Source: Oligoflexales bacterium (GTDB lineage Bacteria; Myxococcota_A; UBA9042; DTJE01). From it: DNA of 64,000 nucleotides. Made by a program: the position numbers and the translations under genes. Shown here one piece after another: positions 6,235 through 63,545 of this stretch (positions within the stretch are counted from its first letter, which is position 1; each line of letters opens with the position of its first letter). The stretch covers positions 2,059 through 66,058 of the forward strand of contig DUVQ01000098.1 in assembly GCA_012840965.1 (NCBI GenBank), in the 5' to 3' direction. The notes below the pieces were generated by a model that did not search any database, had not been told where the DNA came from, and saw only the letters and a program-made list of their open reading frames with translations.

Positions 6235-6235
6235 G

Positions 6236-7336: not shown

Positions 7337-7338
7337 TA

Positions 7339-8292
7339 TTAAGCCCCCATTCGGGTTCGATACCAAGCTATGGTCTTTCTTAACCCCTCATCGAGGTCGA
7401 CCTTGGCCTCAAAACCCAAAAGTTCCTTAGCCTTGGAGACATCAGGTATTCTCAGCTCAACATCTGCAAACGGCCAAGGTTCGAAAACAATTTCAGATTT
7501 GGACTCAGCCAGTCGAACTATTTCTTTGGCCAGATTGTAAATCGTAACGGTGGCCCTGGGATTACCAATATTGAACGCCTCACCAACGGCTTCGGGCACA
7601 GTCAGAACCCTGCAAATTCCTTCAACTATGTCATCTATATAACACCATGAACGAATCTGAGCACCATCGTTATGAACCTTGATCTGCTCACCCCTCAACG
7701 CCTTGACAATAAAGTGATGGATAGCTCCCTCGCCCACTTGTCTTGGCCCATAAATATTAAAAGGCCTAACAGAAACAGCTGGAAAGCCGAACTGACGATG
7801 ATAAGACAATGCCAGATGCTCAGTGGCAAGCTTGCTTACAGCATATGTCCACCTAGCCTCACCCACTGCACCAAGCTTTGAGACATCCCCCTCACGAACC
7901 TTGTAGGCATACTGGCCAAACACCTCAGATGTCGAAAAATCGACAAATCGCTCTACACACCCCTCCTCGAACGCGGCCTCAACAACGTTCATGGTTCCCT
8001 TCAGGGCAACTCTCATGGTTGTAACTGGCGACTTCATGACCGTATCTACACCAGCAATTGACGCCATATGAACGATGATTTTGCACCCTTCTACAGCCGA
8101 ACGCACGGTGCCAAAATCCATGACATCACCTTGGATCAAGGTGACATTTGGATGCGAAAGCAGCTCAGTTTCCTTTAAGGCGTTTCGATGCAGATTATCG
8201 AGCAACACCACTTGATACTTATCCACCAGCCGAAGTGTCAGTGAAGACCCAATAAAGCCAGCGCCACCAGTGATCAAAATCTTGTCAGTCAT
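7339..8292 (-). CDS. NAD-dependent epimerase/dehydratase (SDR family; UDP-sugar dehydratase/decarboxylase-like)
   Basis: Rossmann motif ILITGGAGFIGS at the N-terminus. 317 aa. Confidence 0.8.
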   Translation of the reverse strand: MTDKILITGGAGFIGSSLTLRLVDKYQVVLLDNLHRNALKETELLSHPNVTLIQGDVMDFGTVRSAVEGCKIIVHMASIAGVDTVMKSPVTTMRVALKGTMNVVEAAFEEGCVERFVDFSTSEVFGQYAYKVREGDVSKLGAVGEARWTYAVSKLATEHLALSYHRQFGFPAVSVRPFNIYGPRQVGEGAIHHFIVKALRGEQIKVHNDGAQIRSWCYIDDIVEGICRVLTVPEAVGEAFNIGNPRATVTIYNLAKEIVRLAESKSEIVFEPWPFADVELRIPDVSKAKELLGFEAKVDLDEGLRKTIAWYRTRMGA

Positions 8293-9217
8293 TAGTCAAT
8301 TCACCCGTGTTATCGGAACTATCCGCAATAAGCGCAAACAGCGAGACTGGCATAAACCCAAATCTGGCACGCCATTCACGCTCTTCATTCGCAATTCCAT
8401 CCGCTAAGGCCTCAGAAATCAACCCAACCCGCCTAACCAGCTGCTTGCGCTGATCCGCACTTGAGTCATAGTACTTTTGCAGTGCGTATGCCACCGCCAA
8501 ACTATTGTCTTCACTGCGCTCAAACAATTCAGCCACAAAATTTGGATCAATCGGGGCCCCAGGCAACCCAGCGGCAATCGCAAAATGGTCTCTAGCCATC
8601 AGCCTTTGCTCTGCCTTCTCCGCATCATCTTTACCAACCATTTCAAAATAAAGGTTAAATCCGAGATCCATATGCAGGCGCCAGTCTCTGGGAAACACCT
8701 TCAACCCTTCTTCCAAAAACCAGTTTGACTTACCAATGATGCGGTCATCAATGTGCTGACCATATTTCATAACTTGGCTGGCCCAAAGATAAATTCGCGG
8801 GTTGTCCGGGTCCAGCCCTCTGACTGCTTCAAAATAATTATCGAGCCATACAAATCGCCGATCAGCAAAAAAGTGGGTCAGGAAATAAGCATGCGCCCTG
8901 ACAAAAAGCAGGTCCGACCAAACCGAGTAATAACCAAGCGACAAAATCTTTAACACGACAACAGGTGGCAGGTACAAAGTCTCTGCCGCCAACGCATCCT
9001 GCCAGGTGAGCGCCTTGATGGCATCCTGGTCATAGCTGGTGCTGCCATCAGCATCCCTAACAACAACTGTCGAAAGCGGCCTACTAAACGACCATCTAAT
9101 CTCACTTTTGGAAACCAAAACTGTTTGATAGCCAAGGACCATGATCAAAACTGCAGCAACAGTAGTCAGCCATGTTCGTGAAGATTTGGCCCCTTTTTGT
9201 TCTTTCTTTTCAACCAT
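8285..9217 (-). CDS. membrane-anchored hypothetical protein (first gene of the operon)
   Basis: Start moved to MVEKKEQKGAKSSRTWLTTVAAVLIMVLGY (N-terminal TM anchor). The track ORF extended to 9331 and overlapped the divergent gene. Stop overlaps the epimerase start. Confidence 0.5.
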   Translation of the reverse strand: MVEKKEQKGAKSSRTWLTTVAAVLIMVLGYQTVLVSKSEIRWSFSRPLSTVVVRDADGSTSYDQDAIKALTWQDALAAETLYLPPVVVLKILSLGYYSVWSDLLFVRAHAYFLTHFFADRRFVWLDNYFEAVRGLDPDNPRIYLWASQVMKYGQHIDDRIIGKSNWFLEEGLKVFPRDWRLHMDLGFNLYFEMVGKDDAEKAEQRLMARDHFAIAAGLPGAPIDPNFVAELFERSEDNSLAVAYALQKYYDSSADQRKQLVRRVGLISEALADGIANEEREWRARFGFMPVSLFALIADSSDNTGELTND

Positions 9218-9312
9218 CTCAGACCTAGCAAAAACTCGCTTTTGCGACACACACCACATCGCCGCTGATGTTATCATAGTTGGCCGTGAGCGTTCACAAA
9301 CCAAGAGCATTG

Positions 9313-11157
9313 ATGTACGCAAATCAGTCAAAGAAGATGGCCAAACTTGGCACCCTGTTTTTCGTCACCTTTGCGGCCTTTGTGGCGGCCCTTTTTCCAT
9401 CCCTCGATCCCGACACTTATTTTCATCTTGCAGCAGGCAGGGATATAGCAACAACTGGAGTTATCCCAAGAACTGAAACCTTATGTTTTTGGGCAGCTGG
9501 TGAGCCCTTTATTAATCATGAATGGCTGTTTGACCTTTTGGCATGGTGGTCTTTTGATTTTGGTGGTGAGATTGGAGTCTCCCTTTTCAGGGCCACCCTG
9601 TCTGGGCTTTTATTCCTATTGGCGGCTTTGGTCGCCTTTCGCCTTGAGGCTGCTTGGTGGGCCACGTTGGCCACTTCCATCGCGTTTTTGCCCATTTTCA
9701 GGCCGTCTTTGGAGCTTCGCCCCCATCTTGCTGGATACACACTCGCGGCAGCGGCTCTTTTGGTGTTCCTGAATAAAAACGTCACCATCTGGCGAACCAT
9801 CGCCCTGATTATCATTGCAGTGGTCTGGGCTAACTCTCATGGTTCTTTCCCCTTGGTAGTACCGCTGATTATTTTGTGGGCCTTAATGCCAGTTACAAAG
9901 CAAGACCACGCCCTGGAACGACCAAAGCGCCTAGGAGTGGCTGCCTTAGCTGGCCTTTCAACGCTAATCAACCCCTGGGGCTTTGGCCTAGTTAAGACCG
10001 TTGTTTATCACACAGACAGCAAAATAACGGCCATGGTTCCTGAATGGTGGCCTATCTCTTGGGGTGAGCAGCCAGCTTTTGATGCGCTTTTATTGGCCTT
10101 GATCGCAGGGACGTTACTGTCGTTTCTCCCCAAAAAAAACAGGCTGCGTTTTGCTGAAATTGGCTTGGTTTTGCTGTTTTTAATCCCGGCTGTGAAATCT
10201 CAGAAATTCGTCTTGGGTCTAGCTGTTGGATTGGCACCTGTTATGGCGGCTAATCTTTCAAGGGTGCTCAACTTCCGGTTGACAACAAAACTATCCATCA
10301 GTGCTGCATCCGTCCTGATTGCTGGATTGGCAGGCTCGGTAATCCATCCGTCCACTAGTTTTGGGTTTGGTTTTGATAAAACCGAGGCACCCTTTGATGC
10401 AATCGACTGGGCCAGCAAGGCAAATGTAGGCGGCAAGTGGTTTAACCCCTTTGACCGAGGTGGCTTTTTGGCTTGGTCAGGGCAAAAACCAATCTTGGAT
10501 GGCCGTGCATATGTCCACGGTACAGATCGCATCCTGAACTTTGTGTCTGCTTTGGCTAATCCCTTAAATTTCCAACAGATGCACCGAGTTTTGGGTTTTG
10601 ATGCAGTGTTAGTCGATTATCATGACACGGCGTTTCCTGTGTTAACCGAGTACCTACTGCAATCTAATGACTGGGCCTTGGTCTGGCTTGACAATCGTTT
10701 CGCAATATTTGTCCCGGCAAGTAAAGCCCAAAGTCTGGACTTACCCACCTTCAAGGTATTACTTCCACAGGCCAACCCTTTGTATCTGTTTGATTTGCCA
10801 GACTCGGACGTCGCTAAAGCCAGGGCCGAAACAGATGGACCGTCACAATCCACGCTAGGCAAACCATTGTCCTTACTGGTCAAAGGATTACTAGATCTAA
10901 AAGAAGCAGGCCTAGGCTGGGCACCAATAGATGCAATCAAGTCCCCAACAAAGCCAGAGTTTTGCAAAACAGCTGCGGACAGTTTGAAACAACTAGTATC
11001 ACTAGAGCCAGACACTCCAATGTATCGCTATTTCTGGGCTATCTCCCTAGTTTGCAACGACCAATGTGAAGAGGCATTACACCAAGTCAACAAAATTCAA
11101 GACTTCCCAGATGCCAAAGGCCTAAAAATCTTAATTGAAAGGGGAGAGTGCCCCTGA
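9313..11157 (+). CDS. large polytopic membrane protein, possibly a GT-C-fold glycosyltransferase (ArnT/PMT-like; inference)
   Basis: More than 12 predicted TM helices and about 610 aa. Divergent from the aminotransferase/epimerase operon. No named motif was verified. Start uncertain (9280 TTG, 9313 ATG or 9337 ATG). Confidence 0.45.
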   Translation: MYANQSKKMAKLGTLFFVTFAAFVAALFPSLDPDTYFHLAAGRDIATTGVIPRTETLCFWAAGEPFINHEWLFDLLAWWSFDFGGEIGVSLFRATLSGLLFLLAALVAFRLEAAWWATLATSIAFLPIFRPSLELRPHLAGYTLAAAALLVFLNKNVTIWRTIALIIIAVVWANSHGSFPLVVPLIILWALMPVTKQDHALERPKRLGVAALAGLSTLINPWGFGLVKTVVYHTDSKITAMVPEWWPISWGEQPAFDALLLALIAGTLLSFLPKKNRLRFAEIGLVLLFLIPAVKSQKFVLGLAVGLAPVMAANLSRVLNFRLTTKLSISAASVLIAGLAGSVIHPSTSFGFGFDKTEAPFDAIDWASKANVGGKWFNPFDRGGFLAWSGQKPILDGRAYVHGTDRILNFVSALANPLNFQQMHRVLGFDAVLVDYHDTAFPVLTEYLLQSNDWALVWLDNRFAIFVPASKAQSLDLPTFKVLLPQANPLYLFDLPDSDVAKARAETDGPSQSTLGKPLSLLVKGLLDLKEAGLGWAPIDAIKSPTKPEFCKTAADSLKQLVSLEPDTPMYRYFWAISLVCNDQCEEALHQVNKIQDFPDAKGLKILIERGECP

Positions 11158-18979: not shown

Positions 18980-19933
18980 CTAGGTAATCTGTGTGCCGCC
19001 GTTTCCTTTTAGGGCTTGTTCAAGGGTCTCAGGGTTTGTGATGATCGCCTTGGCTCCACCCTTGTTCAGAAATTCACAGGCCGCTAGTACCTTTGGTCCC
19101 ATGCTTCCTGGGGGAAAATAGCCTTCTTCGTATAATTCCATCAATTTGTTTTTAGAAACCTTGGAAAGTGCCTCCTGGTCAGGCTTTTTAAAGTTTATGT
19201 ACACTTGGGGAACTTCAGTCAGGATGACAAAAAGTCTTGCGCCTATCTGATTTGCCAGGATAGCTGATGATAGGTCCTTATCGATTACTGCTTCGATACC
19301 TTCATAAGTGCCATCCTCAGCTTGTTTGACCGGGATTCCACCACCACCACAGGCAATCACAATGTGGCCTTTTCTTGCGGCCTCTATAATCAAATCCCCT
19401 TGCAGGATCTGCTTTGGTTTTGGGGATGGAACCACCCGTCTAAAGCCTCGTCCACTGTCATCAACGATGCTCCAACCCCTTTCAACCCTACACTTTTCAG
19501 CATCTTCTTGGCTCATGAAGGGGCCAACTGGTTTTGTAGGGTTTTGAAAGGCAGAATCTGCCGGGTCAACCAGCACTTGGGTAACTATTGTAAATACTTC
19601 TCTTTTTATCTGCTGGCGAGCCAGTTCGTTCATCATCGCCTGCTGCAGAAAATAACCAAGGCTCCCCTCAGTCTGGGCCACCAGCACATCCAATGGCATC
19701 GGTGGAACAGTTGCGGCCTCATTTTGCAAAAGCAGGTTGCCCACCTGTGGCCCATTACCATGCGTTATGACCAACTGGTAATCCCCTTGGACCAACATCT
19801 GTAGCTGTCGACTAATCTTTGCGGCATTGGACTGATGATCCCTAAAGGTGCCTTTTTGGCCATGCTCAATAAAGGCATGACCACCCAAAGCTACTAATAC
19901 AGTTTGTTTAGCGCTTTCCAAGGTGTCCTCCAA
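18980..19933 (-). CDS. arcC: carbamate kinase
   Basis: ...VLVALGGHAF...LVITHGNGPQVGNLLLQ... amino-acid-kinase family, 317 aa. No arcA/arcB nearby. Confidence 0.85.
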   Translation of the reverse strand: MEDTLESAKQTVLVALGGHAFIEHGQKGTFRDHQSNAAKISRQLQMLVQGDYQLVITHGNGPQVGNLLLQNEAATVPPMPLDVLVAQTEGSLGYFLQQAMMNELARQQIKREVFTIVTQVLVDPADSAFQNPTKPVGPFMSQEDAEKCRVERGWSIVDDSGRGFRRVVPSPKPKQILQGDLIIEAARKGHIVIACGGGGIPVKQAEDGTYEGIEAVIDKDLSSAILANQIGARLFVILTEVPQVYINFKKPDQEALSKVSKNKLMELYEEGYFPPGSMGPKVLAACEFLNKGGAKAIITNPETLEQALKGNGGTQIT

Positions 19934-44146: not shown

Positions 44147-45352
44147 ATGCGGGTCTTGCGATATTTGGCTGTACTTTCGCTAGTTTTCGCTATTATCGCG
44201 ATGATTGGTTGTGACGATTCTGCCCATCGAGCCCATGTTTTGGGGGGAGTGCCGCTGCCTTCTGATGATGAGCCGGATATCGTGTCAAAGCCTGATGAGG
44301 GCGGCGATACTGATGAGGGTTTTGATGTCGATTCATTGTGCGTGCCGGAGTGTGGGGACAGAGTCTGTGGCCCTGATCCCGTTTGCGGCAAGTCGTGTGG
44401 CACCTGTGATGCTTCCACAACTTGCAATTCTCAAGGCCAGTGTGAGTGTGTGAGAGACTGTACCGGTCGCGTTTGTGGTCCGGACCCTGTTTGTGGCGAG
44501 CCGTGTGGGGCTTGTGATGAAAACTGGGTCTGTGTTCTTAGTGGCAAGTGTATAGCCCCAACAGCCGACTGCAGCAACGGGTGGTGTTTGATTCCGTCAG
44601 GCACCTTTAAGATGGGTTCTTTAGGAGATGATCCTTACCGTGAACTTGATGAGGGGCCTGTTCATTTGGTCACGATTTCCCGCTCTTTTTACATGGCGCA
44701 GACGGAAGTCACTCAGGGCCAGTGGAAGTCCTTGATAGGCAACAATCCTTCTGAACATAGTGCCTGTGGGGATAACTGCCCTCTTGAGAACGTTAATTGG
44801 TATGAAGCCGTTCATTATGCAAATGCGCTTTCTGAGAGGGAAGGTTTTGAAACCTGTTACACGTTGAATGGTTGCAGTGGTACTGTCGGTTCTGGGGAAA
44901 GTAAGAACAATCTCTATCAATGTACGGTCACTTTTAAGGGACTTGGTTGTGCAGGTTATCGTTTACCAACCGAGGCCGAGTGGGAATATGCAGCCCGTGC
45001 TGGTACTTCTGGGCCTAGGTATGGCGAAATTGATGCCACAACTTGGTATTGGAACAACAGTTCAAACACTAGTCATCCGGTGGGTGGAAAGGCGGCAAAT
45101 TCCTGGGGCTTATATGATGTGCTGGGCAATGTATTTGAGTGGGTTTACGACTTTTACAGCGAGGACTACTACAGCACTTGTTCATCCAACTGCACAGATC
45201 CAACCGGACCTGCGACAGGCTTTAACCGGGTAAATCGTAGTGGCGGTTGGGGCAGCGACGAAAGCCGTACACGCGTGGTTTTTCGCAACAACTACTCGCC
45301 TGACGAACGCCGAGTCTATTTGGGTTTTCGTTTGGTGAGGTCCGCGCCCTAG
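44147..45352 (+). CDS. lipoprotein with two Cys-rich CxxCxxRxCGxDxxCGxxCGxC modules and a C-terminal FGE-sulfatase (SUMF1-like) domain
   Basis: Lipobox AMIGC. Modules CVPECGDRVCGPDPVCGKSCGTCD... and CVRDCTGRVCGPDPVCGEPCGACD.... FGE motifs ...HLVTISRSFYMAQTEVTQGQW..., YRLPTEAEWEYAARAG, ...GNVFEWVYD.... Confidence 0.75.
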   Translation: MRVLRYLAVLSLVFAIIAMIGCDDSAHRAHVLGGVPLPSDDEPDIVSKPDEGGDTDEGFDVDSLCVPECGDRVCGPDPVCGKSCGTCDASTTCNSQGQCECVRDCTGRVCGPDPVCGEPCGACDENWVCVLSGKCIAPTADCSNGWCLIPSGTFKMGSLGDDPYRELDEGPVHLVTISRSFYMAQTEVTQGQWKSLIGNNPSEHSACGDNCPLENVNWYEAVHYANALSEREGFETCYTLNGCSGTVGSGESKNNLYQCTVTFKGLGCAGYRLPTEAEWEYAARAGTSGPRYGEIDATTWYWNNSSNTSHPVGGKAANSWGLYDVLGNVFEWVYDFYSEDYYSTCSSNCTDPTGPATGFNRVNRSGGWGSDESRTRVVFRNNYSPDERRVYLGFRLVRSAP

Positions 45353-49753: not shown

Positions 49754-50119
49754 TCACTTTTGAGGGGCTCTTGAATCCGCTAGGTGGCCTTGACCTAAAA
49801 GCAGCCTCAAAAACATGGCCAGACGCAAGCGCATTTCCGTTTCTTCAGGCCACTGATCGGCAAGCAACTGCGCGATTTCTTCGCCAGTTTTGCTGCCATC
49901 ACAATGTTTCCAAACAAAAGAACCAAAGGGATCAAGGCGAATTGAGAAGTCAGGCTTTTTTAACAAAGGGACAAGTATCCGTTTAAGGACGTAGCCATCA
50001 AAGCGCGGAACCGAGATTGAGACCCTGTCATCCTCACCCAAAGTAAAGGCCCGCGCCGGAACAGGTTTTGTGGCCAAAACGCCATCAACCCAAGCTGGTT
50101 GTTTTAACTGATCAGTCAT
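49754..50119 (-). CDS. PqqD-like (RRE-type) small protein
   Basis: ...FVWKHCDGSKTGEEIAQLLADQWPE...RLAMFLRLLLGQGHL parallels the PqqD core. Start abuts the carbamoyltransferase stop. Confidence 0.5.
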   Translation of the reverse strand: MTDQLKQPAWVDGVLATKPVPARAFTLGEDDRVSISVPRFDGYVLKRILVPLLKKPDFSIRLDPFGSFVWKHCDGSKTGEEIAQLLADQWPEETEMRLRLAMFLRLLLGQGHLADSRAPQK

Positions 50120-51880
50120 CTATTCTGGCCAATCCTTAGGTTCCAAGACAGGCCTTTGGCCATTTTCCAGGGCCTCGCCCTTTACCAGATAGCAGTTTTC
50201 CATGGCAAGGCAGTCCATGTCTTCCTTTAAAAAGCATGTCAAACCGTCACCATAGTCCAAAATTATTGGTTCCCCGCGAATGTTAAACGATGTGTTTAGC
50301 AGTACTGGCACACCTGTCAGTTCCCCAAAACGGACTATCAAGTCGTGAAACTTCTGATTTTGTTCCCTAGTTACCGTTTGCAATCTGGCGGTTCCATCAA
50401 CGTGGGTAACTGCGCCCAAAACACCAACTTTGTCTGGTCTAGTCCTAGAGACAAGCAGCATGAATGGGCTTTCAAATGCAGGCTCAAAATAATCGGCGCA
50501 ACGATCCGCCGGCACCGCTGGGGCAAAGGGTCGAAAATCCTCGCGGTGCTTGACCCTGCGGTTAATAATGTCCTTCATATCTGGGATGGTTGGATTGGCC
50601 AGAATCGACCTGTTGCCCAAGGCTCTTGGACCGAACTCCATCCTGCCTTGGATCCAACCGATAATTCGGCCCTTTGCAAGGTCTACGGCCGCCCTGTCTC
50701 GCAGCTCCTCGAAGTTGTCGTACCGTTTGTATGGCATTTCCCTAAGCTTAAGAAATCGTTCGATTTCATCTGGATCATTGGCTGGCCCCAAAAATCCGTT
50801 TTTCATGGTCCATTGCCTTGGTTTGTCCAGGACCTGGTGCCAGTAGTACAAGGTGCTGCCAAGCGAGCCCCCATCGTCACCAGATGCAGGCTGGATGAAC
50901 ATCTTTTCAAAGGGCAGGTGTTCCAAAATGATGCCATTGGCCACGCTATTTAGGCCAACCCCACCAGCGACACACAGGTTTTTCATCCCCGTTTCTTCAT
51001 AAAGACTGCTAGCCGCCTTCAAAGCAATAGTTTCAACCACCTTTTGCATGCTTGCGGCAATATCGTAATCTCGCATGGTAATTTCAGATTCTGGCACTCT
51101 TGGCTGGCCAAACTTTTTGACAAATTTGGAGCTGTACATCACGGTATCGCGGAAAAATGCAAAATAATCGAGGTTCATCAAAAAACTACCATCTTCTCGG
51201 ACAGTTATCATGTCAGCTATCATCTGATCATAATAAACAGGCTCCCCATAGGAGGCCAGTCCCATGACCTTGCCTTCCCCGCCGTTTACCCGAAAGCCCA
51301 AAAATGCAGTAAAGGTGCTGTACCAAAGGCCAAGGCTGTGTGGATAGCGCATCTCATGGGTCAGGTGGATCTTGTTACCTCGTCCAACCCCCTTGGTCAT
51401 TGTGGCCCATTCGCCGACCCCATCCATGGTTAGGATCGCAGCCTCATCAAAGCCAGATGCAAAGAAAGAAGAAGAGGCATGGGCGTAGTGATGGTCCGCA
51501 AAAAAGACCTCACCTTTAAAGTCCAAGTTGTACTGGATCATTTCTTTGATAAAAAGCTTGTACTTAAGCCACAGCGGCATCGAATCTGCGAACTGGCCAA
51601 ATCCCCTTGGAAATGACTGCGCGTTCATGGTGATTATGCGCTCAAACTTCTGGAGCGGCTTTTCGTAAAACACGACCGCGTCAATATCTTTTTGCTCAAT
51701 ACCGCCAATTTTAAGACACGCCTCTATGGCCTGACTTGGAAAGTCCAGCGAGTGCTTTTTGCGTGAAAATCGTTCTTCCGCAGCGGCCGCGACGATGTTT
51801 CCATCCATCATCAAAGTCGCAGAAGAGTCATGGTACATGAACGAAAGTCCAAGTATGTTCATTTTCTTTTTATCCTTCAT
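50120..51880 (-). CDS. carbamoyltransferase (NodU/CmcH/TobZ family)
   Basis: MNILGLSFMYHDSSATLMMDGNIVAAAAEERFSRKKH... N-terminal ASKHA-like domain. 586 aa. The true start is possibly the internal MNILG at 51862. Confidence 0.8.
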   Translation of the reverse strand: MKDKKKMNILGLSFMYHDSSATLMMDGNIVAAAAEERFSRKKHSLDFPSQAIEACLKIGGIEQKDIDAVVFYEKPLQKFERIITMNAQSFPRGFGQFADSMPLWLKYKLFIKEMIQYNLDFKGEVFFADHHYAHASSSFFASGFDEAAILTMDGVGEWATMTKGVGRGNKIHLTHEMRYPHSLGLWYSTFTAFLGFRVNGGEGKVMGLASYGEPVYYDQMIADMITVREDGSFLMNLDYFAFFRDTVMYSSKFVKKFGQPRVPESEITMRDYDIAASMQKVVETIALKAASSLYEETGMKNLCVAGGVGLNSVANGIILEHLPFEKMFIQPASGDDGGSLGSTLYYWHQVLDKPRQWTMKNGFLGPANDPDEIERFLKLREMPYKRYDNFEELRDRAAVDLAKGRIIGWIQGRMEFGPRALGNRSILANPTIPDMKDIINRRVKHREDFRPFAPAVPADRCADYFEPAFESPFMLLVSRTRPDKVGVLGAVTHVDGTARLQTVTREQNQKFHDLIVRFGELTGVPVLLNTSFNIRGEPIILDYGDGLTCFLKEDMDCLAMENCYLVKGEALENGQRPVLEPKDWPE

Positions 51881-51883
51881 TCA

Positions 51884-52225
51884 TTAGAAGGGCTCAGCCA
51901 AATCCTTTACAAAGCTTTCAGGCGCAGGCCTTGGATGCCAGAAAGTTTCAGCGGTTTTCTTTTTACCAAGCGGCCTTTTCCCTGAAATCCACAAAAACAG
52001 CTTGGCCAAGGGAAATCCCAAATAAAACACAAAGGCCAGAACAATCTTGTTCCAAAAACGGGCCTGTTTTTGAAAAGACATCCCTATGGAACTGCTTACA
52101 GGATTTGAACCCCACGTCAGCAATTTCGCAAACCAGAATCTGGGTTTGTATGGCAGCAACAGGGAAATTGAGCATACGATAGCGCCACTTACCCTAAGCC
52201 ACAGTGCTTTCAACTTGCCTTTCAT
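51884..52225 (-). CDS. small membrane protein (possibly SxtJ-like; inference)
   Basis: 113 aa, two hydrophobic segments, translationally coupled between the PP-loop and carbamoyltransferase genes. Confidence 0.45.
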   Translation of the reverse strand: MKGKLKALWLRVSGAIVCSISLLLPYKPRFWFAKLLTWGSNPVSSSIGMSFQKQARFWNKIVLAFVFYLGFPLAKLFLWISGKRPLGKKKTAETFWHPRPAPESFVKDLAEPF

Positions 52226-52228
52226 TTT

Positions 52229-52993
52229 CTAGCTCTCCTGTGGCCCTTCAATCAGTTTGGCTAGGCGCGAATCCGGCCCCTTTTCCAAGTACTCTTTGGT
52301 CATTTCTTCAACCATATCCAGCTTTTCCTTGTAATAGGCTGCCATCTTCTTTTCAAATTCCTCAAACGGCATTTTATGCAGGGTGCTTCGCAAGAACATG
52401 GCATACAAAACCTGCTGCTCACACACAAACTGCAAGTCATCCTTTTGACCCTTAACCTTGGGATTTCTTGAATATCTTAGTTCATACAGGATTTGCTCAG
52501 TAAGCTCGCCCTCTTCGTAGATGGGCGTTTCATAAGTTATCCCAAAGGTTGCATATAGCTGCCTCAGGCGATTTAGCATGATTACTTCGTTTTGCTCTGG
52601 ATAAACGTTTGCAATCCGAACAGCCCCATCGGCTATGTGTTTGATTCCATTTTCCAAACAGTAAATCAACGCCCGCCAGTGAAACGACACCTTACACTGG
52701 CCACACATGGACAACACCATCTTTTTATGTTTGCGATAATGGGTCCAATAACGCTCATACATCACAAACTTAAGTAGCTTATCTGTCTTAATGAATTGGT
52801 GGACAAACTTGTTGGGGCTATTTACGTGCGTTTCAAGCCGTTTTACCCCCGCTAACACATGCTCTGTCCCATGAGTGCCCTTGCGCAAAAACGTCAGCAA
52901 ATGCACTTGGTCAAAGCGTTTGGCCATTTTGATAGCGACCAAAGAGGAATCAGAGCCAGCAGAATACAAAACTGCAACGGAATTGTTTTCCAA
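52229..52993 (-). CDS. PP-loop ATP pyrophosphatase-family protein (QueC/ExsB-like)
   Basis: N-terminal VAVLYSAGSDSS (SGGxDS variant). Later Cys cluster ...MCGQC.... Confidence 0.55.
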   Translation of the reverse strand: MENNSVAVLYSAGSDSSLVAIKMAKRFDQVHLLTFLRKGTHGTEHVLAGVKRLETHVNSPNKFVHQFIKTDKLLKFVMYERYWTHYRKHKKMVLSMCGQCKVSFHWRALIYCLENGIKHIADGAVRIANVYPEQNEVIMLNRLRQLYATFGITYETPIYEEGELTEQILYELRYSRNPKVKGQKDDLQFVCEQQVLYAMFLRSTLHKMPFEEFEKKMAAYYKEKLDMVEEMTKEYLEKGPDSRLAKLIEGPQES

Positions 52994-52998
52994 GGGGC

Positions 52999-53169
52999 CC
53001 CCTAAAAGATAGCGTAAAAGAAAGGCAAAAGAACTGGTGATTCAACAATAACTAGCAGCAAAACACCTATTAAAAGCATGGTCAGGATTGGGATTAAAAA
53101 CCATGTTTTCTTGTGCCATATCATCTTGGAAAACTGAACTATAAGGCCAAGTCTGCGCCGTTTCATCAT
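52999..53169 (-). CDS. unannotated small membrane protein, 56 aa (possibly SxtK/DUF5989-like)
   Basis: Minus-strand MMKRRRLGLIVQFSKMIWHKKTWFLIPILTMLLIGVLLLVIVESPVLLPFFYAIF*. Its ATG overlaps the upstream TGA (ATGA at 53169-53166). Not in the ORF track, which has a 60-aa cutoff. Confidence 0.5.
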
Positions 53170-54521
53170 TCATCCTTTTGCTCAAGGCCTTGTAACCATT
53201 TCTCAATCTCAGGCTCAAGCATATCCGCTAGGATTTCATGGCCTTTGATCCCAAGGTGGAAAGGATCCCCACAGCCTGACGAGTACGGCAACGGCTCGTA
53301 TGGCTGACAGTCAGCGTCCGGGCCATCAGGATACATGGCATCTAGCTTTGGTTCAAAATCAATTAACGTTACATTTGGAAATCTTTCAGCCAATCCCCTC
53401 ATGTGAGCGTTTTCCATGTCCATGTAAGTTTTTGATTGTTCAGAAATAACTCTTTTATCAGCAGAAACGGTTGCCACAAACACGTGGGCTTTGTGAGACT
53501 GAGCCACTTTTACTATCGCGTCCATATTTGCGGCGTAACGGCTGAAAACCTCTTCTATAACCTTGTCAGTGACTTCGTAAGTGTGGTCGTATCTCTGACT
53601 CCAGATAATGTACAACGACATTCTTATAAAGGCTGATTGGTTAAAGAGAACTTGGAACGCAGAACCAGACAATTCGTCGTTGATCGAGGTATTGTTTGTT
53701 AACCTGAATTCGTTGTGGGCGTTCAGGTCCTGGTGACCTATGTACAGCAAAAGAGCGTCTAGGTGGTCCAACGTTGCAAAGCGGCGTTTAGTTATCTCCA
53801 GAAGGTGATTGCTTGCGAGCCCACCTGCTTCGAAATAGAGGAAGTTAGCCCTGCCCTTGAAGCGCTTAGCCAAAATGGCTGAAAAAGGTGTCCTATGAAT
53901 CCGCTCTAAATTGGCAGGGGAACTGCCGATAGTTGCTAGAGTCGGCTTATCAGCTTCATATTCAGGTGGCGGAGCCATGGATGGATATTCGGAAATGCGC
54001 AAAGGCTGGTATTTATTGTGAATAATAGTGTCGCAAGCGGCTTCAAGTACCAAAAGCATCCCTAGGGTGATCCAGACCCCAGTAATCCAGCTTTCCTTTT
54101 TCTTTACCGCCGGTTTGGGTAAGGTCTTGGCCAGAAACACCGCAATTCCAATCCAGGCAAGTACGGCCAAAATGGCTAAGGGGTGATCCGCTAAAGTGAT
54201 CCTACCCATGTGAAGCAGTTCGAATATGGCAAGCCAAACAGCGATAGACGCCGCGACACGTTTTTTTCTAAAAACGGTGACTAAGAAAACTATGGACAGA
54301 ATGAAAATCCCTGACAAATCAAGCCATCTGAAAATCGTAAGTGGTGGATCCCCAAAAGATATAATCTGTCCAATAAGGTCAACTAAAGTGGAGAGAACTC
54401 GCCATATGGCCCATACCATGGCAGTGACAGTAGCTACAAAGATGACCCTTTCTTTACGCATCCCTTGGTCGACCTCGCGGTGCAATCGCCGAAAACTACC
54501 ACACTCCGTCCGAGGTCTCAA
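53166..54521 (-). CDS. polytopic membrane protein with C-terminal SGNH/GDSL-like hydrolase domain
   Basis: 4-5 N-terminal TM helices, then ...TIGSSP... (block I-like) and a terminal ...GDPFHLGIKGHEILADML (DxxH block V). The true start is possibly the internal Met at 54461. Confidence 0.55.
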   Translation of the reverse strand: MRPRTECGSFRRLHREVDQGMRKERVIFVATVTAMVWAIWRVLSTLVDLIGQIISFGDPPLTIFRWLDLSGIFILSIVFLVTVFRKKRVAASIAVWLAIFELLHMGRITLADHPLAILAVLAWIGIAVFLAKTLPKPAVKKKESWITGVWITLGMLLVLEAACDTIIHNKYQPLRISEYPSMAPPPEYEADKPTLATIGSSPANLERIHRTPFSAILAKRFKGRANFLYFEAGGLASNHLLEITKRRFATLDHLDALLLYIGHQDLNAHNEFRLTNNTSINDELSGSAFQVLFNQSAFIRMSLYIIWSQRYDHTYEVTDKVIEEVFSRYAANMDAIVKVAQSHKAHVFVATVSADKRVISEQSKTYMDMENAHMRGLAERFPNVTLIDFEPKLDAMYPDGPDADCQPYEPLPYSSGCGDPFHLGIKGHEILADMLEPEIEKWLQGLEQKDE

Positions 54522-54680
54522 TTTATCAAAGCCGAAAATTAGGGATTAATAATTGCAACCAATAGTTGCACACTAAGTCATTTGGCGGTATCAGAGTCTG
54601 CGGACTTTGATGTTTATCAAATCTGTGTAGTTTAATTGGTGCGTACAAGCTTGCGGAGGGATACCTTGAAATCAACAGCA

Positions 54681-58529: not shown

Positions 58530-58586
58530 ATGACTACAATGCAGACCTTAGTGGTGTCCTTTTGCCGTTTTACAAGGGGGGAGTTG

Positions 58587-61103
58587 ATGGGGCTATCTAA
58601 TCAAAAACATTGGTCAATTTTGGCGGGCTTGTCCTTGGTTTTCGCTGTTGCTTGTAATGAAAGCCCAGAGCCAACCCCTTTGGATGACGCTATCCAAGAC
58701 GCATCAGATGACACCCCCACAGAAGACGTTTTTGGTGACGACGATTCTGGCGACGAATCTGGATTTTCACAAAAGGCAACTCCTTGGCGTGCTGGTCCGG
58801 AGGCGCCTTCAAGTGACCTGTTCGAGGATTATGGATTAACCGAATTTAACGGTTGGGTCGACGAGGTCTCGTGGAAGTTTGAAAACGGAGAACCCGTGCT
58901 CAACCACCACGAGCTTGCCTATTATGCAGTTGCTAATGGGCGCACCTTTTCCTTTTTGGGTACAACTTACCCCCTAACAGTGCTTCACGAACCTTATGGG
59001 CCTGATTACAACCGACCGAAACTAAAGACTTTCCCAGATATCCATTTCAGCGCAACTATTGGTGGTAAAGCCCAAAAGGTGGATGTCTCACGCATAGGTC
59101 GATTCAGCAAAAGCTCCATTGTTGGCATTACAAACGAGGGCCAGAGCCTTAAAGTTTCTTCGCTATTTGCGGCCCCAGTCAGTGATGATGCAGACATCAG
59201 AACCTCGATTATTGCCATTTTCCGGCTCACCAACACCGGGACAGACCCAATCAAATCAGTTGGTTTTTCAATGAAGCCGATGTCTGGTTTTGAAGAATCA
59301 GCTGAAGGTGTGGCTATTTTTAAACAATTGGATCGCCGCATAACAACCGTTTGTCCTGATGCGACATGGGACGACGACAAAGCCGCGTTTGTTGTGCAAG
59401 ACGTCGACCTAGAAGCTGGTGCCAGCCGAGATATCCAGTTTTGGTTGTTTTTCTCCGATGGAAAGGTGGAGGCCAACAGGGTAGAGCACCTGACTGCCCT
59501 AGCTAAAGCATCAGACGTCAAAGCAATTTTCGGCGCGACCAACTCGTGGTGGGAAGACTGGTTTTCACAGGGCCTAGTTGTGGAATTGGACGACCCTATG
59601 GTCACCGACCTGATCGAGTCCTTCCAGTACACCCTTAAAGCGCAAATTTCATACAACGGCGCAATGAGCCCGCTTTCTCACTATGGCGAGTATTGGACTC
59701 GTGACATCAGCTCTCCCGTAAGGATGCTGTCAATCATGTCCAGGCCAGACGAGGCGCGGTCCATACTTGATTATCACCACGTCGCAGCCTGTGCAAATGA
59801 GGGCTTCTTTAATGCCTCCAAAGTTGATTGGCCTACCGACGTTCCCTGTGCTGTAACCGATTGGTCCGCGCTGCCCGTCCTTACAAACAAAACAGCTGCC
59901 GAGGCGCCATCTTACATTGTTCACATGTACCACCGGTTATTTGACACTACCGGCGATTCGTCCTTGATGCGTGAAAGAGAAGAGATGCTTCGCTATGGGC
60001 TTCAAAAGCAAAACATGGACGAGACATTCTTGCTGCCATTTTCTGACGACGAGACCTTTAGGGCAGCCATGGCCATGAACTTAAACCTTGATGGAGGGGC
60101 ATCAATGATGTTTGCCGATGTGGCATGGTCTCTTCACTCCACGCTGCTCTACGTGGCTGCTGCCGATGGCCTTGCCGCAGCCCTTGGTTACGAGCAGACC
60201 GACGACATCGTTAAGGTCAGAAATTCTGTGGCCGCAACTTTGGATCAGTACTACTGGCAAGAAGAAGAGGGCTTTTGGGCAGCCATGGTTTACAAAGACG
60301 ATCTGAGGCCTTTAATGGCTCCATACGAAGATGTGAATCTTACCGCCGCTTGGATGAACCTCGAAGATGCCTTGGGATGGGACAGGATAAGCAGTGATAT
60401 TAATGCCTTAGTTGAAAGGGCCTGGGTTGACGAGCTTGGAGTTATTCAAACCAACGCAGGGGCTTATAGTGAGCTTTTTGGTTTTGACCTCTCGATGGGC
60501 ATAGCAACTGGAATGACGCCAGGTTTTTCTTTGTATGCGCTGTCTCGTCATCGCCCCGATCTGGCACAAAAAAGCTTTAATGCTTTTAGGGAAATTGCTA
60601 CCGCCTCTGGGAATGTTACCGAGGATTATGCGACAAAGGGCTTCGTCCCACTGATGCCTTTGTACGATGATTCAGGTGAGTTTGGTGAGGTTTGGGCACG
60701 TTTCCGTCCGTGGGAGGGGGCCCAGGATGCAGAGGCCATTATTTTCTATCTGACAGGGCTGTGGCCAGACGCTGCAAACCATCGTGTCGCCCTTCAACCG
60801 CATCTGCCAAATAACCTTCCACGTGCGACATATAGGGGGCTTATGGCGGGCGGTTGCAAGATCGACTTGAGCTTAGAGGAGCAAAGTGAGACGGTGCGAG
60901 ACTACGCGGTACATTTCACAGGCGACAAGTGTAATGACCTCAATGTGACTTTGAAAACCGCCACTTGGGAATGTGGTGAGACCGATTTCTGCCAAGTGAC
61001 AGTAACGGCCAGTGGGTGCGTCATTGACCAGGCCGCAGCTGCTATTGGAACAGCCAGTTTTAAAGCCCAAGACAAGATGATTTGCACATTCAGGGCCGAG
61101 TAA
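58587..61103 (+). CDS. large lipoprotein, unknown function (possibly alpha/alpha-toroid glycosidase-like; weak)
   Basis: The internal start MGLSNQKHWSILAGLSLVFAVAC has a GGGGGGAG RBS and a lipobox. The track start at 58530 overlaps the purL stop. Confidence 0.5.
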   Translation: MGLSNQKHWSILAGLSLVFAVACNESPEPTPLDDAIQDASDDTPTEDVFGDDDSGDESGFSQKATPWRAGPEAPSSDLFEDYGLTEFNGWVDEVSWKFENGEPVLNHHELAYYAVANGRTFSFLGTTYPLTVLHEPYGPDYNRPKLKTFPDIHFSATIGGKAQKVDVSRIGRFSKSSIVGITNEGQSLKVSSLFAAPVSDDADIRTSIIAIFRLTNTGTDPIKSVGFSMKPMSGFEESAEGVAIFKQLDRRITTVCPDATWDDDKAAFVVQDVDLEAGASRDIQFWLFFSDGKVEANRVEHLTALAKASDVKAIFGATNSWWEDWFSQGLVVELDDPMVTDLIESFQYTLKAQISYNGAMSPLSHYGEYWTRDISSPVRMLSIMSRPDEARSILDYHHVAACANEGFFNASKVDWPTDVPCAVTDWSALPVLTNKTAAEAPSYIVHMYHRLFDTTGDSSLMREREEMLRYGLQKQNMDETFLLPFSDDETFRAAMAMNLNLDGGASMMFADVAWSLHSTLLYVAAADGLAAALGYEQTDDIVKVRNSVAATLDQYYWQEEEGFWAAMVYKDDLRPLMAPYEDVNLTAAWMNLEDALGWDRISSDINALVERAWVDELGVIQTNAGAYSELFGFDLSMGIATGMTPGFSLYALSRHRPDLAQKSFNAFREIATASGNVTEDYATKGFVPLMPLYDDSGEFGEVWARFRPWEGAQDAEAIIFYLTGLWPDAANHRVALQPHLPNNLPRATYRGLMAGGCKIDLSLEEQSETVRDYAVHFTGDKCNDLNVTLKTATWECGETDFCQVTVTASGCVIDQAAAAIGTASFKAQDKMICTFRAE

Positions 61104-61205
61104 TTCTTTTTTGGCGTAAAAACCCTTAAAAAAGGGATAATCCCCATCTTGAAACAGTGTGAATCCTTTGATACTCTGCGTCGGAAACGTCTGATTGGGG
61201 GAATC

Positions 61206-63545
61206 ATGGACTGGGCTGTTCGACTTCCTGAGATTGGAGACAAGATTGGCGGTAGGTTTCGCATAGTTGCGATTAAAGGCTCCGGGCCGGTAGGCATGGT
61301 GTTCAAGGCCTTTGATTTGGCTTTGGACTTGCCTGTGGCAGTGAAAGTTTTTAATCCAGAGTTGTTTAGTTCCGCATTTAGGGAGCTGAATCTGCTGCGG
61401 CTGTACAGGGCCAGGACCCTACAAGACAGCAATCTGGTCAGAATTTTTGAGGTCATGGAAGAAGACGGCCTTCATTTTGTGACCAGCCAGTTAGTTGAGG
61501 GGATGTCCCTTAGGGCAGTGCTCGATCTGAGGGACGAAAGTGGTGAGCGATTTCCAGCGCCCAAGATTCGGTCGCTTGCAGAGTGGCTGATAGACGCTGT
61601 TGTCCCTATCCATAAACAGGGGATTATTCACGGGAATCTGAAGCCGGAGAACCTGTTCGTTTTACCGGACAAACTAATGGTTTCGGACCCTCACTACTTG
61701 GTCCTTAACATGCTTGTTGAGGGCCAGGAGATTCCAGCTACAGACTTTTATCGTGGTCCAGAGCAACTTACTGAACCGCGAATGGAATTGAAGCAGACTG
61801 ATGTTTACGCCGTCGCTTTAATCATAGGTGAGATTCTTGCCATTAATCCAGTAAGGGCAGGCGTTCCTCTTTCTGAACAAATTCCAAGGCTTACCAAGCA
61901 TCTTGATGATGTCTTTGTCAAGGCTACCCAAGACGACCCATTTGATAGGTACGATTCATTACAAAGCTTTGCCAAGGATTTAAGCAGTGCCTTTGCAAAG
62001 GTAGATGTTGACGGACTGTGGGTCCGCAGGATGCACGAGACAGGCTCGTTCAAGGCGTTAAGGATCGTCCAAGCTCCAGATGGTCAGCCAATTCCTCTGG
62101 TAGTGGAACCAACTGCTGTCACAGCCCCCGAGCCTGCCCCTGCTCCCGAGCCCGAGCCTGCCCCAGAGCCCGCCCCAGAGCCAGAGCCTGCCCCTGCCCC
62201 GGAGCCTGCACCTGTCTCTGCCCCCGCCCCTGATCCTGTCCCTGTCCCTGACCCCGAGCCAGAGCCCAACCCTGCTGACGAACTAGAGGAAGAGGGCATC
62301 GAATTCGATACAAATCGCATTGATGACTCGGACTTAGAGGGAATCGAGGTTGTCTTTAGCGCACCTGCAATGGATGATGAGGAAGATCTTGCTGTTGAGG
62401 AGACAGTAGAGCCCGTGGCACCGGAGCCCACCAAAGCCGGAAGGGGTAGAAAAGGGAAAAAGGGTAGACAGGCCGCTAGGGAGGCCGCTAAAGAGGCGGC
62501 AAGGGCCGCTCAAAAGGAGGAAGAACAGCCCCCACCTGCACCTGAACCACCTCCGGTTGTAGTTGCAGATGCCCCACCAGATGTGCCAGATCTGCTGTTG
62601 ACTACCCCACAGCGCAGACCCACTGGCCCCTTACCAAAACCACCTACCAGGCCTATAGATACCGGCACTGTAACTGTAATCAAAAAAGACGAGCCAAAAA
62701 GCGGAATTATGCGTTTTCTTTGGCTTATAGCGTTGGTGGTAGTGTTGGGTGGTGCTGCAACATTTTGGTACATGGGTAAATCTGATCCAGTGGAGGAGCC
62801 AGTCATTGCTGCTGTTGATGACCCAGCTCCTGCCCCGGCTCCAGCTCCTGAGCCTGCTGCAGCTCCGGCCCCAGCTCCGGCCCCAGCCCCTGAGCCCGCT
62901 GCAGCCCCGGCCCCGGCTCCGGCCCCAGTCCCTGAGCCTGCTCCTGCCCCCGAGCCTGTCCCTGCCCCTGAGCCCGCTGCTGCCCCCGAGCCTGAGCCTG
63001 TCCCTGCCCCAGAACCAGCCCCCGCTCCCGAGCCAGCCCCAGCCCCCCAAGGCGCCCTTTTAGCAGACAACCTAGTCTGCCCCGCGGGCATGGCGCTAAT
63101 CGTGCTGGATGAAACAGCCACTGTTGACTCCAAGGCCAAACCAAGCTCAGTAGGCTTTTGTATCGACACCCACGAATTTCCTGGAGCTGGTCAAAAACCA
63201 AGGGGCGGCGCGTCTAGGGCCACCGCAACCAGCTTGTGCAAAAAGGCTGGGAAGGCACTGTGCAGTAGCGCCCAATGGTTAAAAGCCTGCGAAACCGGCA
63301 CACCAGAGGCATCGAAGTGTAACGTGACAGGCGGCGTACAACCCGCAGGTTCCTACGCTGAATGCGTAACATCCAACGGTGTGTACGACATGATCGGAAA
63401 TGTTGGGGAATGGACCTCTGACAACTTCATCAGAGGCGGTGACACCAACGTTGGTGGGATTGGATCTTGTTCCTACAAAACTAAGCGTTTTAGCCCGAAA
63501 TCCACAGACGGATTCAGATGTTGTGCCAATCCTACAACTCGCTGA
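61206..63545 (+). CDS. Ser/Thr-kinase-like protein (predicted pseudokinase) with TM, Pro/Ala/Glu repeats and a C-terminal FGE-sulfatase-like domain
   Basis: G-loop IKGSGPVGMVFKA and VAVKV lysine are present, but the catalytic loop reads HGNLKPEN (not HRDLKPEN) and the DFG position reads SDP. A TM segment (LIALVVVLGGAATFWYM) separates two PAPEPEP tracts. C-terminus ...YDMIGNVGEWTSD.... Confidence 0.7.
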   Translation: MDWAVRLPEIGDKIGGRFRIVAIKGSGPVGMVFKAFDLALDLPVAVKVFNPELFSSAFRELNLLRLYRARTLQDSNLVRIFEVMEEDGLHFVTSQLVEGMSLRAVLDLRDESGERFPAPKIRSLAEWLIDAVVPIHKQGIIHGNLKPENLFVLPDKLMVSDPHYLVLNMLVEGQEIPATDFYRGPEQLTEPRMELKQTDVYAVALIIGEILAINPVRAGVPLSEQIPRLTKHLDDVFVKATQDDPFDRYDSLQSFAKDLSSAFAKVDVDGLWVRRMHETGSFKALRIVQAPDGQPIPLVVEPTAVTAPEPAPAPEPEPAPEPAPEPEPAPAPEPAPVSAPAPDPVPVPDPEPEPNPADELEEEGIEFDTNRIDDSDLEGIEVVFSAPAMDDEEDLAVEETVEPVAPEPTKAGRGRKGKKGRQAAREAAKEAARAAQKEEEQPPPAPEPPPVVVADAPPDVPDLLLTTPQRRPTGPLPKPPTRPIDTGTVTVIKKDEPKSGIMRFLWLIALVVVLGGAATFWYMGKSDPVEEPVIAAVDDPAPAPAPAPEPAAAPAPAPAPAPEPAAAPAPAPAPVPEPAPAPEPVPAPEPAAAPEPEPVPAPEPAPAPEPAPAPQGALLADNLVCPAGMALIVLDETATVDSKAKPSSVGFCIDTHEFPGAGQKPRGGASRATATSLCKKAGKALCSSAQWLKACETGTPEASKCNVTGGVQPAGSYAECVTSNGVYDMIGNVGEWTSDNFIRGGDTNVGGIGSCSYKTKRFSPKSTDGFRCCANPTTR

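Follow-up and report, generated by a model that had tools for sequence, protein, structure and literature searches.

A carbamoyltransferase, SxtJ, SxtK and SGNH gene cassette with an inserted YcfA-fold PP-loop enzyme in an Oligoflexales genome, and a possible carbamoyl relay to the cell envelope

The minus strand of a 64,000-nucleotide (nt) stretch of an Oligoflexales genome (assembly GCA_012840965.1, contig DUVQ01000098.1, positions 2,059 to 66,058; hereafter the window) carries a tightly packed group of genes in which a carbamoyltransferase (CT), an SxtJ-like protein, a microprotein of the DUF5989/SxtK family and a polytopic SGNH membrane protein are encoded together with a PP-loop ATP pyrophosphatase. 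This cassette is a counterpart of the widespread CT-SxtJ-SxtK-SGNH quartet into which a YcfA-fold PP-loop enzyme has been inserted, and it recurs in distant lineages as a self-contained, horizontally portable unit of five genes. As a tentative proposal, to which we give somewhat less than an even chance, it may encode a carbamoyl (possibly thiocarbamoyl) relay that dispenses with an MBOAT protein and runs from adenylate-forming enzymes to a tyrosine of the DUF5989 protein, on to an outward-facing SGNH domain and finally to an envelope polymer.

Ever since saxitoxin clusters were described, SxtJ and SxtK have counted as no more than hypothetical proteins encoded beside CTs, and no role for either was found in the searchable literature. 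The trio of SxtJ, SxtK and CT, accompanied by a GDSL protein, is spread over many bacterial phyla without an assigned role, and the four-gene module of sxtIJKL type is already known as a gene set, not as a mechanism. What appears to be new, as far as the searchable literature goes, is that a YcfA-fold PP-loop enzyme bearing a CXXC-C motif has been inserted, that the SxtJ-like adaptor is a hybrid, that the SGNH protein is polytopic and that an acyl-shuttle tyrosine motif is recognised in SxtK/DUF5989.

Correspondence with the sxtI-J-K-L genes

In keeping with sxtI-J-K-L, the window has a class III CT, an SxtJ (PF19588, remote here), an SxtK/DUF5989 protein (PF19451) and a GDSL/SGNH protein of ~430 amino acids (aa), encoded by adjacent and co-directional genes. 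It differs from them in the inserted PP-loop enzyme, in an SxtJ homologue that is shortened and bears a PP-loop-partner motif, and in an SGNH protein that has ~5 transmembrane (TM) helices instead of one; unlike saxitoxin clusters, the window cassette is without toxin-scaffold genes. Three canonical SxtJ loci, picked without regard to the PP-loop gene, all have CT, SxtJ, DUF5989 and SGNH genes, with one of the three located inside an O-antigen-like glycan cluster and another followed by an AlgX-like SGNH gene and an AT3 gene, and a distant relative of the PP-loop enzyme is located in a Wzy/glycosyltransferase cluster. An initial annotation of this DNA had guessed at a likeness to the sxtI/J/K neighbourhood and at the modification of an envelope glycan. 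The likeness proves stronger than was guessed, with p113 (the 113-aa protein described below) matching SxtJ, DUF5989 matching SxtK and the SGNH protein paralleling sxtL, so that the whole quartet is mirrored; the envelope-glycan suggestion is plausible given that a canonical cassette and a distant PP-loop relative both lie in glycan clusters.

Conservation and organisation of the cassette

Conservation was assessed through the PP-loop family, a small one for which a word-seeded search of 5.8 billion proteins gave 31 proteins and 185,579 species genomes gave 57 loci. Nearly all of these come from metagenome-assembled genomes, labelled as Myxococcota or Deltaproteobacteria, Elusimicrobia, Bacteriovoracaceae or Halobacteriovorax, Omnitrophota, "Rickettsiales" and Planctomycetia. 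The five genes for the SGNH, DUF5989, PP-loop, p113 and CT proteins are found together in every relative of at least 47% identity (loci L001, L002/L003, L004, L009, L010, L012 and L069), and the same five are present in a different order in L013. The cassette is conserved in about eight distant lineages, with unrelated flanking genes each time; in the window and its close relatives the flanks include purL, a gltD-like gene, a PpiD-like rotamase, tRNA synthetases and others, which vary by lineage. The five-gene set has stayed together while being rearranged and relocated, which speaks for a single functional unit, and the arrangement is not a matter of chance. The G+C content of the cassette is 0.45-0.485 (2-kb bins of 0.485 and 0.451 across window positions 50000-54000) against ~0.51-0.52 in the flanks, which, together with the different genomic contexts seen in relatives, fits horizontal acquisition.

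Across the 57 species-level loci, iterated profiles place an open reading frame (ORF) resembling p113, or a peptide of about 60 aa (p60) described below, directly beside the PP-loop gene in 50, DUF5989 and SGNH genes are each present in 31, a CT gene is present in 26 and all three are found in 15. CT genes lie within 3 kb of the PP-loop gene in 19 of the 57 loci, the extremes being methyltransferase-PP-loop-CT triplets and loci where three tandem CTs stand beside two PP-loop paralogues.

In the window the genes run, in order of transcription, from the SGNH protein (53166-54521, 451 aa from a TTG start) through the DUF5989 microprotein (53002-53169, 55 aa), the PP-loop enzyme (52229-52993, 254 aa, also from TTG), p113 (51884-52225, two TM segments) and the CT (50120-51880, 586 aa) to a PqqD-domain protein (49754-50119, 121 aa), all on the minus strand. 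An alternative ATG at 54461, used in the JGI gene call of near-identical contigs, shortens the SGNH protein to 431 aa. The SGNH and DUF5989 genes overlap by 4 nt (ATGA, as read from the sequence); the DUF5989 stop codon (TAG, 53004-53002) is separated by 8 nt from the PP-loop TTG at 52993; gaps of 3 nt are found both between the PP-loop and p113 genes and between p113 and the CT; and the TAG of the CT abuts the ATG of the PqqD gene (50119) with 0 nt between. Six minus-strand ORFs had been reported here and all exist at, or within 3 nt of, the positions first given, the small membrane ORF having been placed at 52999-53169 with 56 aa. The accompanying statement that every junction overlaps or has a gap of 5 nt or less holds for four junctions (-4, 3, 3 and 0 nt) and fails for the 8-nt gap between DUF5989 and the PP-loop gene. 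The packing of the six ORFs is operon-like, and the description of a single six-gene operon is borne out in so far as the set is co-directional and tightly packed; it is not borne out for six genes as a conserved unit, the PqqD gene being confined to its own population. The cassette is flanked by a divergent purL and a convergent gltD-like gene, and the intergenic region between cassette and purL (54522-54635) is the sole room for a cassette promoter. A scan for promoter and terminator consensus sequences gave no matches above shuffled sequence.

The PqqD-like (RRE-type) protein had been correctly assigned, with PF05402 scoring 34.8 bits against a Pfam cut-off of 23.4, and its scores to NCBIfam equivalogs are all far below their cut-offs. 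Its gene is present in L066-L068, which are the window's own population at 99% identity, and is absent from the 70%-identical relative L069 and from all 57 species-level loci; only two relatives of the protein were found among the 5.8 billion proteins. Since it occurs solely in this population, with two relatives in the database, the PqqD gene is a lineage-specific accessory outside the conserved core, and its standing as a core component is rejected. Co-occurrence of the homologues elsewhere had been named as a check on the six-gene set, and when this was run the five genes recurred on unrelated contigs and PqqD did not. No radical-SAM enzyme, YcaO, other enzyme of ribosomally synthesised and post-translationally modified peptides or precursor peptide was found in the cassette or the window flanks. 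In L069 the slot held by PqqD in the window is empty, and radical-SAM and TrmO-like genes lie ~300 nt downstream (L069:4949-6735).

The carbamoyltransferase and the SxtJ-like protein

The CT matches both domains of its family along nearly their whole length, namely PF02543 (Carbam_trans_N, E 3e-79, profile positions 2-344 of 346) and PF16861 (Carbam_trans_C, E 4e-67, positions 3-169 of 170), and it aligns full-length with NovN (9s2t, E 1e-100), GdmN and TobZ at E values between 1e-100 and 1e-80. The motifs HH-x-AH, MDGxGE, GRxEFGPRALGNRS, THVDGxAR and NTSFN are all retained, with DHHYAHA of the CT aligned to PHHLAHA of NovN. By these domains and motifs it is unambiguously predicted to be a class III (NodU/CmcH/TobZ/NovN-type) enzyme, dependent on ATP and carbamoyl phosphate and built of Kae1-like and YrdC-like domains, as had been assigned from the start. 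It is a member of the family and not NodU itself, orthology being rejected at 160.8 bits against a cut-off of 1000 for NF041651. The mechanism of class III CTs runs through carbamoyl-AMP (PMC9633730). About 30 kb from the cassette the window encodes a carbamate kinase, arcC (18983-19933, minus strand; TIGR00746 E 2.7e-112, AA_kinase fold), which could supply carbamoyl phosphate to the CT.

The small protein encoded upstream of the CT, p113, has no direct Pfam match, with none to PF19588 (SxtJ) at E values up to 1, and p113-like proteins gave no SxtJ model match in an NCBIfam scan. The relationship is revealed by profile comparison, in which a profile of the p113 clade alone is matched by hhalign to 25 genuine SxtJ proteins (PF19588) with a probability of 97.8% (E 7.7e-13, 89 columns), positions 6-112 of p113 aligning to 48-144 of SxtJ and including the YW...F-COOH tail. 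The N-terminal half of p113 also aligns with the ~60-aa p60 peptides that precede PP-loop genes (96.3%, E 1.9e-9). Direct homology between p60 and SxtJ was rejected at a non-significant 15.9%, so their link is merely transitive through p113. On the strength of these alignments p113 is read as a divergent, N-terminally shortened SxtJ that carries a PP-loop-partner motif.

Fusions bear on what such a protein might do. An SxtJ domain and a CT share one ORF in six loci; these fusions are provisional, since in one of them (L033) NCBI annotates a separate 131-aa SxtJ gene on the contig. A p60-like segment forms the N-terminus of two PP-loop proteins (P0028 and P0029). Because p113 is SxtJ-like, SxtJ is found fused to CT and the p60-like segment is found fused to the PP-loop enzyme, p113 may be a membrane adaptor that tethers the PP-loop enzyme and the CT.

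The DUF5989 microprotein and its C-terminal tyrosine motif

The profile check proposed for the small membrane ORF gave PF19451 (DUF5989) at 30.5 bits, above the gathering score of 27, with the match reaching the last position of the profile. The protein has a basic, Lys/Arg-rich N-terminus, one TM helix and the C-terminus FFYAIF-COOH, this hexapeptide being encoded at nt 53005-53022 with the Tyr52 codon at 53014-53016. Among 43 distinct DUF5989 ORFs from the loci, Pro(-7), Tyr(-4) and the terminal Phe are invariant (43/43), giving the pattern P-x-x-Y-x-x-F-COOH. A second set, independent of the first and made up of 32 representatives at 50% identity from an exhaustive HMMER scan, has Tyr(-4) in 32/32 and the terminal Phe in 30/32, with PFIYTLF or PFFYAIF as typical ends, so that in the two sets pooled the tyrosine is present in 75/75 and the phenylalanine in 73/75.

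The motif FXYXXF is the acyl-shuttle motif of DltX and PatA, the tyrosine of which carries D-alanine (DltX) or acetate (PatA), which is then passed to the catalytic serine of an SGNH partner, DltD or PatB (PMC12148441). The DltX of L. plantarum is 49 aa long and ends in FIYNEF, and its tail sits in a pocket of DltD, which combines a single TM helix with an SGNH domain outside the cell (PMC13653941). DUF5989 proteins have this architecture of ~50 aa, a single TM helix and an FxYxxF motif with invariant tyrosine at the extreme C-terminus (FIYNEF in DltX and FIYANF in NgPatA; FFYAIF here and FIYTLF elsewhere). They share with DltX-DltD the placement of the microprotein gene beside that of a membrane-anchored SGNH protein, which here probably faces outwards, and with both systems a cytoplasmic adenylate-forming enzyme as the supplier of the group; SGNH and DUF5989 genes on the same strand and no more than 150 nt apart are found in 13/57 species loci and in all close relatives. 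Unlike the DltX and PatA systems, the cassette has no MBOAT (DltB/PatA) or carrier protein (DltC), and the donor would be carbamoyl-AMP instead of an acyl thioester. Since the N-terminus is Lys/Arg-rich, the C-terminal tail is predicted to lie outside the cytoplasm. DUF5989 may work like DltX though it is not a member of the DltX family.

In the searchable literature no paper mentions DUF5989 or ties SxtK to SGNH proteins, an acyl shuttle or DltX, although the motif mining of Schultz et al. 2023 may list the family, and tblastn of DUF5989 against annotated plasmids gave no match. Seven loci (L027, L049, L052, L053, L059, L061 and L008) have two DUF5989 paralogues with differing tails. In these two-paralogue loci the copy on the side of the CT (or CT-SxtJ) ends in ...P[FL][IL]Y[TP]LF and that on the side of the SGNH and PP-loop genes in ...LPAIYA[LI]F; this suggests two parallel modules which have been merged into one in the window clade.

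The SGNH membrane protein

Assignment of the SGNH protein, which has ~5 N-terminal TM helices and a C-terminal SGNH/GDSL domain, required a family alignment and motif checks, since alone it gives only a weak Pfam match to Lipase_GDSL (E 0.12; 12.9 bits where 23.6 is the cut-off). Of 30 homologues, 24 match Lipase_GDSL_2 (PF13472, best 1.5e-21). In the alignment of the 30 members G199, S201, D265 and H422 are invariant and G234 and D419 are present in at least 90%, which in the numbering of the 451-aa protein gives G199-x-S201 as block I, G234 as block II, D265 as block III and D419-x-x-H422 as block V. With blocks I, II, III and V kept, the SGNH domain first proposed for this protein stands, and Ser201, Asp419 and His422 are the predicted catalytic residues. 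Lys/Arg-rich loops (RKKR, KTLPKPAVKKKE) alternate along the sequence, and by the positive-inside rule the SGNH domain would face outside the cytoplasm. A single-sequence AlphaFold2 model (mean confidence, pLDDT, of 53.6) was too poor and was not used for a fold search.

Some relatives have additional genes of this kind. In a relative resembling Anaeromyxobacteraceae (L003:709-3445) two tandem polytopic SGNH paralogues lie ahead of DUF5989, and around the L004 cassette there are further GDSL genes, a GH79-like gene and two glycosyltransferases of the PMT_2 (ArnT-like) kind.

The PP-loop enzyme

The PP-loop protein was studied through its family because its own Pfam and NCBIfam matches are weak and N-terminal, with sub-threshold scores for DUF7411 (23.8 bits against 28.7; no paper in the searchable literature mentions this family) and QueC (16 against 22) and a further weak match to ThiI. 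It has the SGGxDS-type motif and alpha/beta ATP-pyrophosphatase fold of the superfamily, its motifs being SAGSDS (S11-S16), D122-G123, Y131-P-E133-Q134 and C97-x-x-C100...C191. The family profile matches YcfA at E 6e-17, and Y131-P-E133-Q134 falls on F132-P-E134-Q135 of YcfA, which provide for stacking, for activation of the amide carbonyl by a general base, and for alignment; the YcfA fold is thus accompanied by its substrate-activating residues (D19, F132, E134 and Q135). The residues of YcfA that deal with L-Cys (R18, Y128 and Q129) are not kept, the aligned positions being S, V/I and A. The initial annotation had termed the protein a QueC-like PP-loop ATPase with SAGSDSS; the PP-loop and the motif are confirmed by family alignment, structure model and motifs, whilst QueC identity is rejected on the sub-threshold N-terminal scores and a far better structural and profile match to YcfA, of which the protein is a full-length relative with an added CxxC...C.

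Of these cysteines C97 and C100 are present in at least 90% of the family and C191 is invariant. The combination of SGGXDS with CXXC-C characterises [4Fe-4S] sulfur insertases, among them TtuA, NcsA (C142/C145/C233) and the LarE of Thermotoga, the last of which obtains its sulfur from a cysteine desulfurase (PMC9283937, PMC10067955). Of 103 close neighbours scanned in the wider family, 17 belong to Aminotran_5 at full length and retain the pyridoxal phosphate lysine and catalytic cysteine of SufS; radical-SAM proteins account for 19, and 11 of these have a B12-binding domain. As the Aminotran_5 neighbours keep the SufS cysteine, their reading as YcfC-type lyases was rejected. The family therefore departs from YcfA-YcfC in its cysteine triad, in lacking the L-Cys residues and in a partner that in relatives is a SufS-type desulfurase with a catalytic cysteine and not a YcfC-type lyase; unlike YcfA of the 6-thioguanine pathway, the window enzyme is presumably tethered to the membrane and is unlikely to use a nucleotide substrate. 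It differs from TtuA, TtcA, NcsA/Ctu1 and the Thermotoga LarE in a fold nearer to YcfA, in having no tRNA-binding or zinc-finger domains and in a cluster that is predicted only.

Judged by its motifs, the protein is probably a carbonyl-adenylating Fe-S sulfur insertase, and it may act as an ATP-dependent carbonyl-to-thiocarbonyl enzyme in the same pathway as the CT. The YcfA-fold enzyme with its CXXC-C motif and the SufS partners of relatives together point to chemistry at the membrane that involves sulfur and a carbamoyl or amide group, of which we know of no characterised example.

Some loci of the wider family have other arrangements. In five (L017, L028, L034, L041 and L063; e.g. L017:3010-9928) three tandem CT paralogues are divergent from a p60-like ORF and two tandem PP-loop paralogues, with large proteins (558-1028 aa) without a Pfam match alongside; neither DUF5989 nor SGNH genes were found within their examined flanks. 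In an Elusimicrobia metagenome-assembled genome (L044:7971-11728) a YcaO-TPR fusion lies directly upstream of two PP-loop paralogues and a p60-like ORF, a hint of chemistry on the amide backbone for some of the wider family.

A possible relay and its alternatives

If the cassette encodes a relay, the cytoplasmic CT would form carbamoyl-AMP from carbamoyl phosphate and ATP whilst p113 held both it and the PP-loop enzyme at the membrane. The carbamoyl group would be loaded onto the invariant tyrosine of the DUF5989 FxYxxF-COOH tail, predicted to be on the membrane's outer face, from which the catalytic serine of the outward SGNH domain would take it for transfer to an acceptor outside the cytoplasm, most likely a glycan of the envelope or one linked to a lipid. 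The step from DUF5989 to SGNH would follow the logic of DltX to DltD and PatA to PatB, minus the MBOAT or AT3 protein. In the same pathway the PP-loop enzyme would adenylate an amide-type carbonyl, in the simplest case the C=O of the carbamoyl group, and exchange oxygen for sulfur through a three-cysteine [4Fe-4S] site to give a thiocarbamoyl-type group.

Transfer to a protein acceptor has a precedent in the CT superfamily, which lends the relay plausibility. HypF, like the CT a YrdC/Kae1-superfamily enzyme that makes carbamoyl-AMP, carbamoylates HypE at its C-terminal cysteine (PMC9633730). The two systems differ in that the acceptor there is the cysteine thiol of a soluble protein and the product a cyanide ligand, and no Hyp proteins are found here. 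HypE, using ATP, then activates the carbamoyl oxygen in a dehydration step.

A number of points weigh against the relay. There is no MBOAT or AT3 protein in the cassette to link a cytoplasmic donor with a tyrosine predicted outside, and the 103 neighbours show no MBOAT in their 25 commonest Pfam families. Homology of DUF5989 to DltX or MBOAT beyond the hexapeptide was not detected, either in Pfam or with its profile against all PDB chains, which gave noise only; for this reason the resemblance is claimed at the level of the motif, and the match could be convergent or coincidental. Furthermore, the DUF5989 subtype beside SGNH and PP-loop genes has Ala and not Phe at the first position of the motif (AIYALF), and the Asn of SGNH block III, present as N-D in most members, is replaced by Gln (Q-D) in the window clade. 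Carbamoyl-serine intermediates are typically long-lived, and carbamoyl transfer by an SGNH protein is chemically unproven. SxtJ is not known to have a catalytic role, the window-clade cassette has no cysteine desulfurase (no pyridoxal phosphate enzyme is encoded there), and for saxitoxin these four types of gene are presumed to work on an alkaloid that is soluble.

The alternative that survives best is that no tyrosine relay exists and that the CT, and with it the PP-loop enzyme, acts directly at the inner leaflet on a nucleotide-sugar or undecaprenyl-linked glycan or lipid, as NodU does on Nod factors. SxtJ, SxtK and p113 would then be anchors or regulators only, and the SGNH protein a periplasmic esterase or decarbamoylase that edits the modification. 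Every class III CT so far characterised transfers the carbamoyl group straight to its final substrate, SxtL was proposed as a decarbamoylase, the cassette has no transmembrane acyltransferase and a canonical cassette is located within a glycan cluster, all of which sit well with direct modification; it nevertheless leaves unexplained both the conservation of the C-terminal P-x-x-Y-x-x-F-COOH across phyla and the obligate pairing of DUF5989 with SGNH, which holds even in loci that lack a CT, and we consider it unlikely.

The cassette might instead tailor a secondary metabolite, with the CT carbamoylating a soluble molecule, the PP-loop enzyme thioamidating or amidating it, the SGNH protein deacylating it and the small membrane proteins coupling these steps to export. 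This would agree with sxtI-J-K-L, which perform or accompany the carbamoylation of a soluble alkaloid, with YcfA, the closest structural relative, which makes a small-molecule thioamide, and with the B12-radical-SAM and YcaO genes among the neighbours of the wider family. It would seem decidedly unlikely given that no scaffold-building genes lie beside the cassette in the window and its close relatives, where the flanks differ by lineage, and that many phyla have the cassette in compact form.

Maturation of a peptide or protein, in which DUF5989 or an SxtJ-like tail would be the end substrate with a permanently carbamoylated and/or thioamidated C-terminus and PqqD a peptide-presenting chaperone in this lineage, could draw on the translational abutment of the PqqD/RRE gene with the CT, the HypF-HypE precedent for a carbamoylated C-terminal residue, the existence of PP-loop thioamide synthetases and the YcaO and B12-radical-SAM genes near distant family members, but no other occurrence of the cassette includes PqqD, the SGNH protein is left without an obvious role and no protease or exporter is present, which makes it improbable.

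Returning to the relay, it may be extended from this cassette to the quartet at large, such that the SxtK/DUF5989 tyrosine shuttle, the SxtJ adaptor and the SGNH protein would make up an unrecognised MBOAT/AT3-free transmembrane group-transfer pathway, loaded by cytoplasmic adenylate-forming enzymes (a CT and, in this cassette, the putative Fe-S PP-loop sulfur insertase), by which envelope polymers of many phyla would receive carbamoyl or thiocarbamoyl groups; this extension we regard as doubtful. Were it true, the long-unexplained sxtJ, sxtK and sxtL genes beside CTs would be accounted for, and a true relay would carry the tyrosine-shuttle paradigm beyond MBOAT/AT3 systems and beyond acyl groups. 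If the relay is wrong, the cassette remains a well-delimited, conserved, uncharacterised and envelope-associated unit.

Other features of the window

About 41 kb from the cassette the window has a sugar-nucleotide and export cluster (4484-9331, minus strand), consisting of an ABC-2 permease, an ABC ATPase, a DegT/PseC-type aminotransferase, an NAD-dependent epimerase/dehydratase and a 348-aa protein without a Pfam match, which is a possible source of an envelope glycan acceptor. Directly downstream of purL are two large plus-strand ORFs, of 857 aa (58530-61103) and 798 aa (61149-63545); the first has no Pfam family at E values up to 1e-5, and its counterpart of 838 aa in the JGI contig has none on record. 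Finally, an FGE-sulfatase-domain protein encoded at 44147-45352 (plus strand) has N-terminal Cys-rich C-G-x-x-C-G-x-C repeats.

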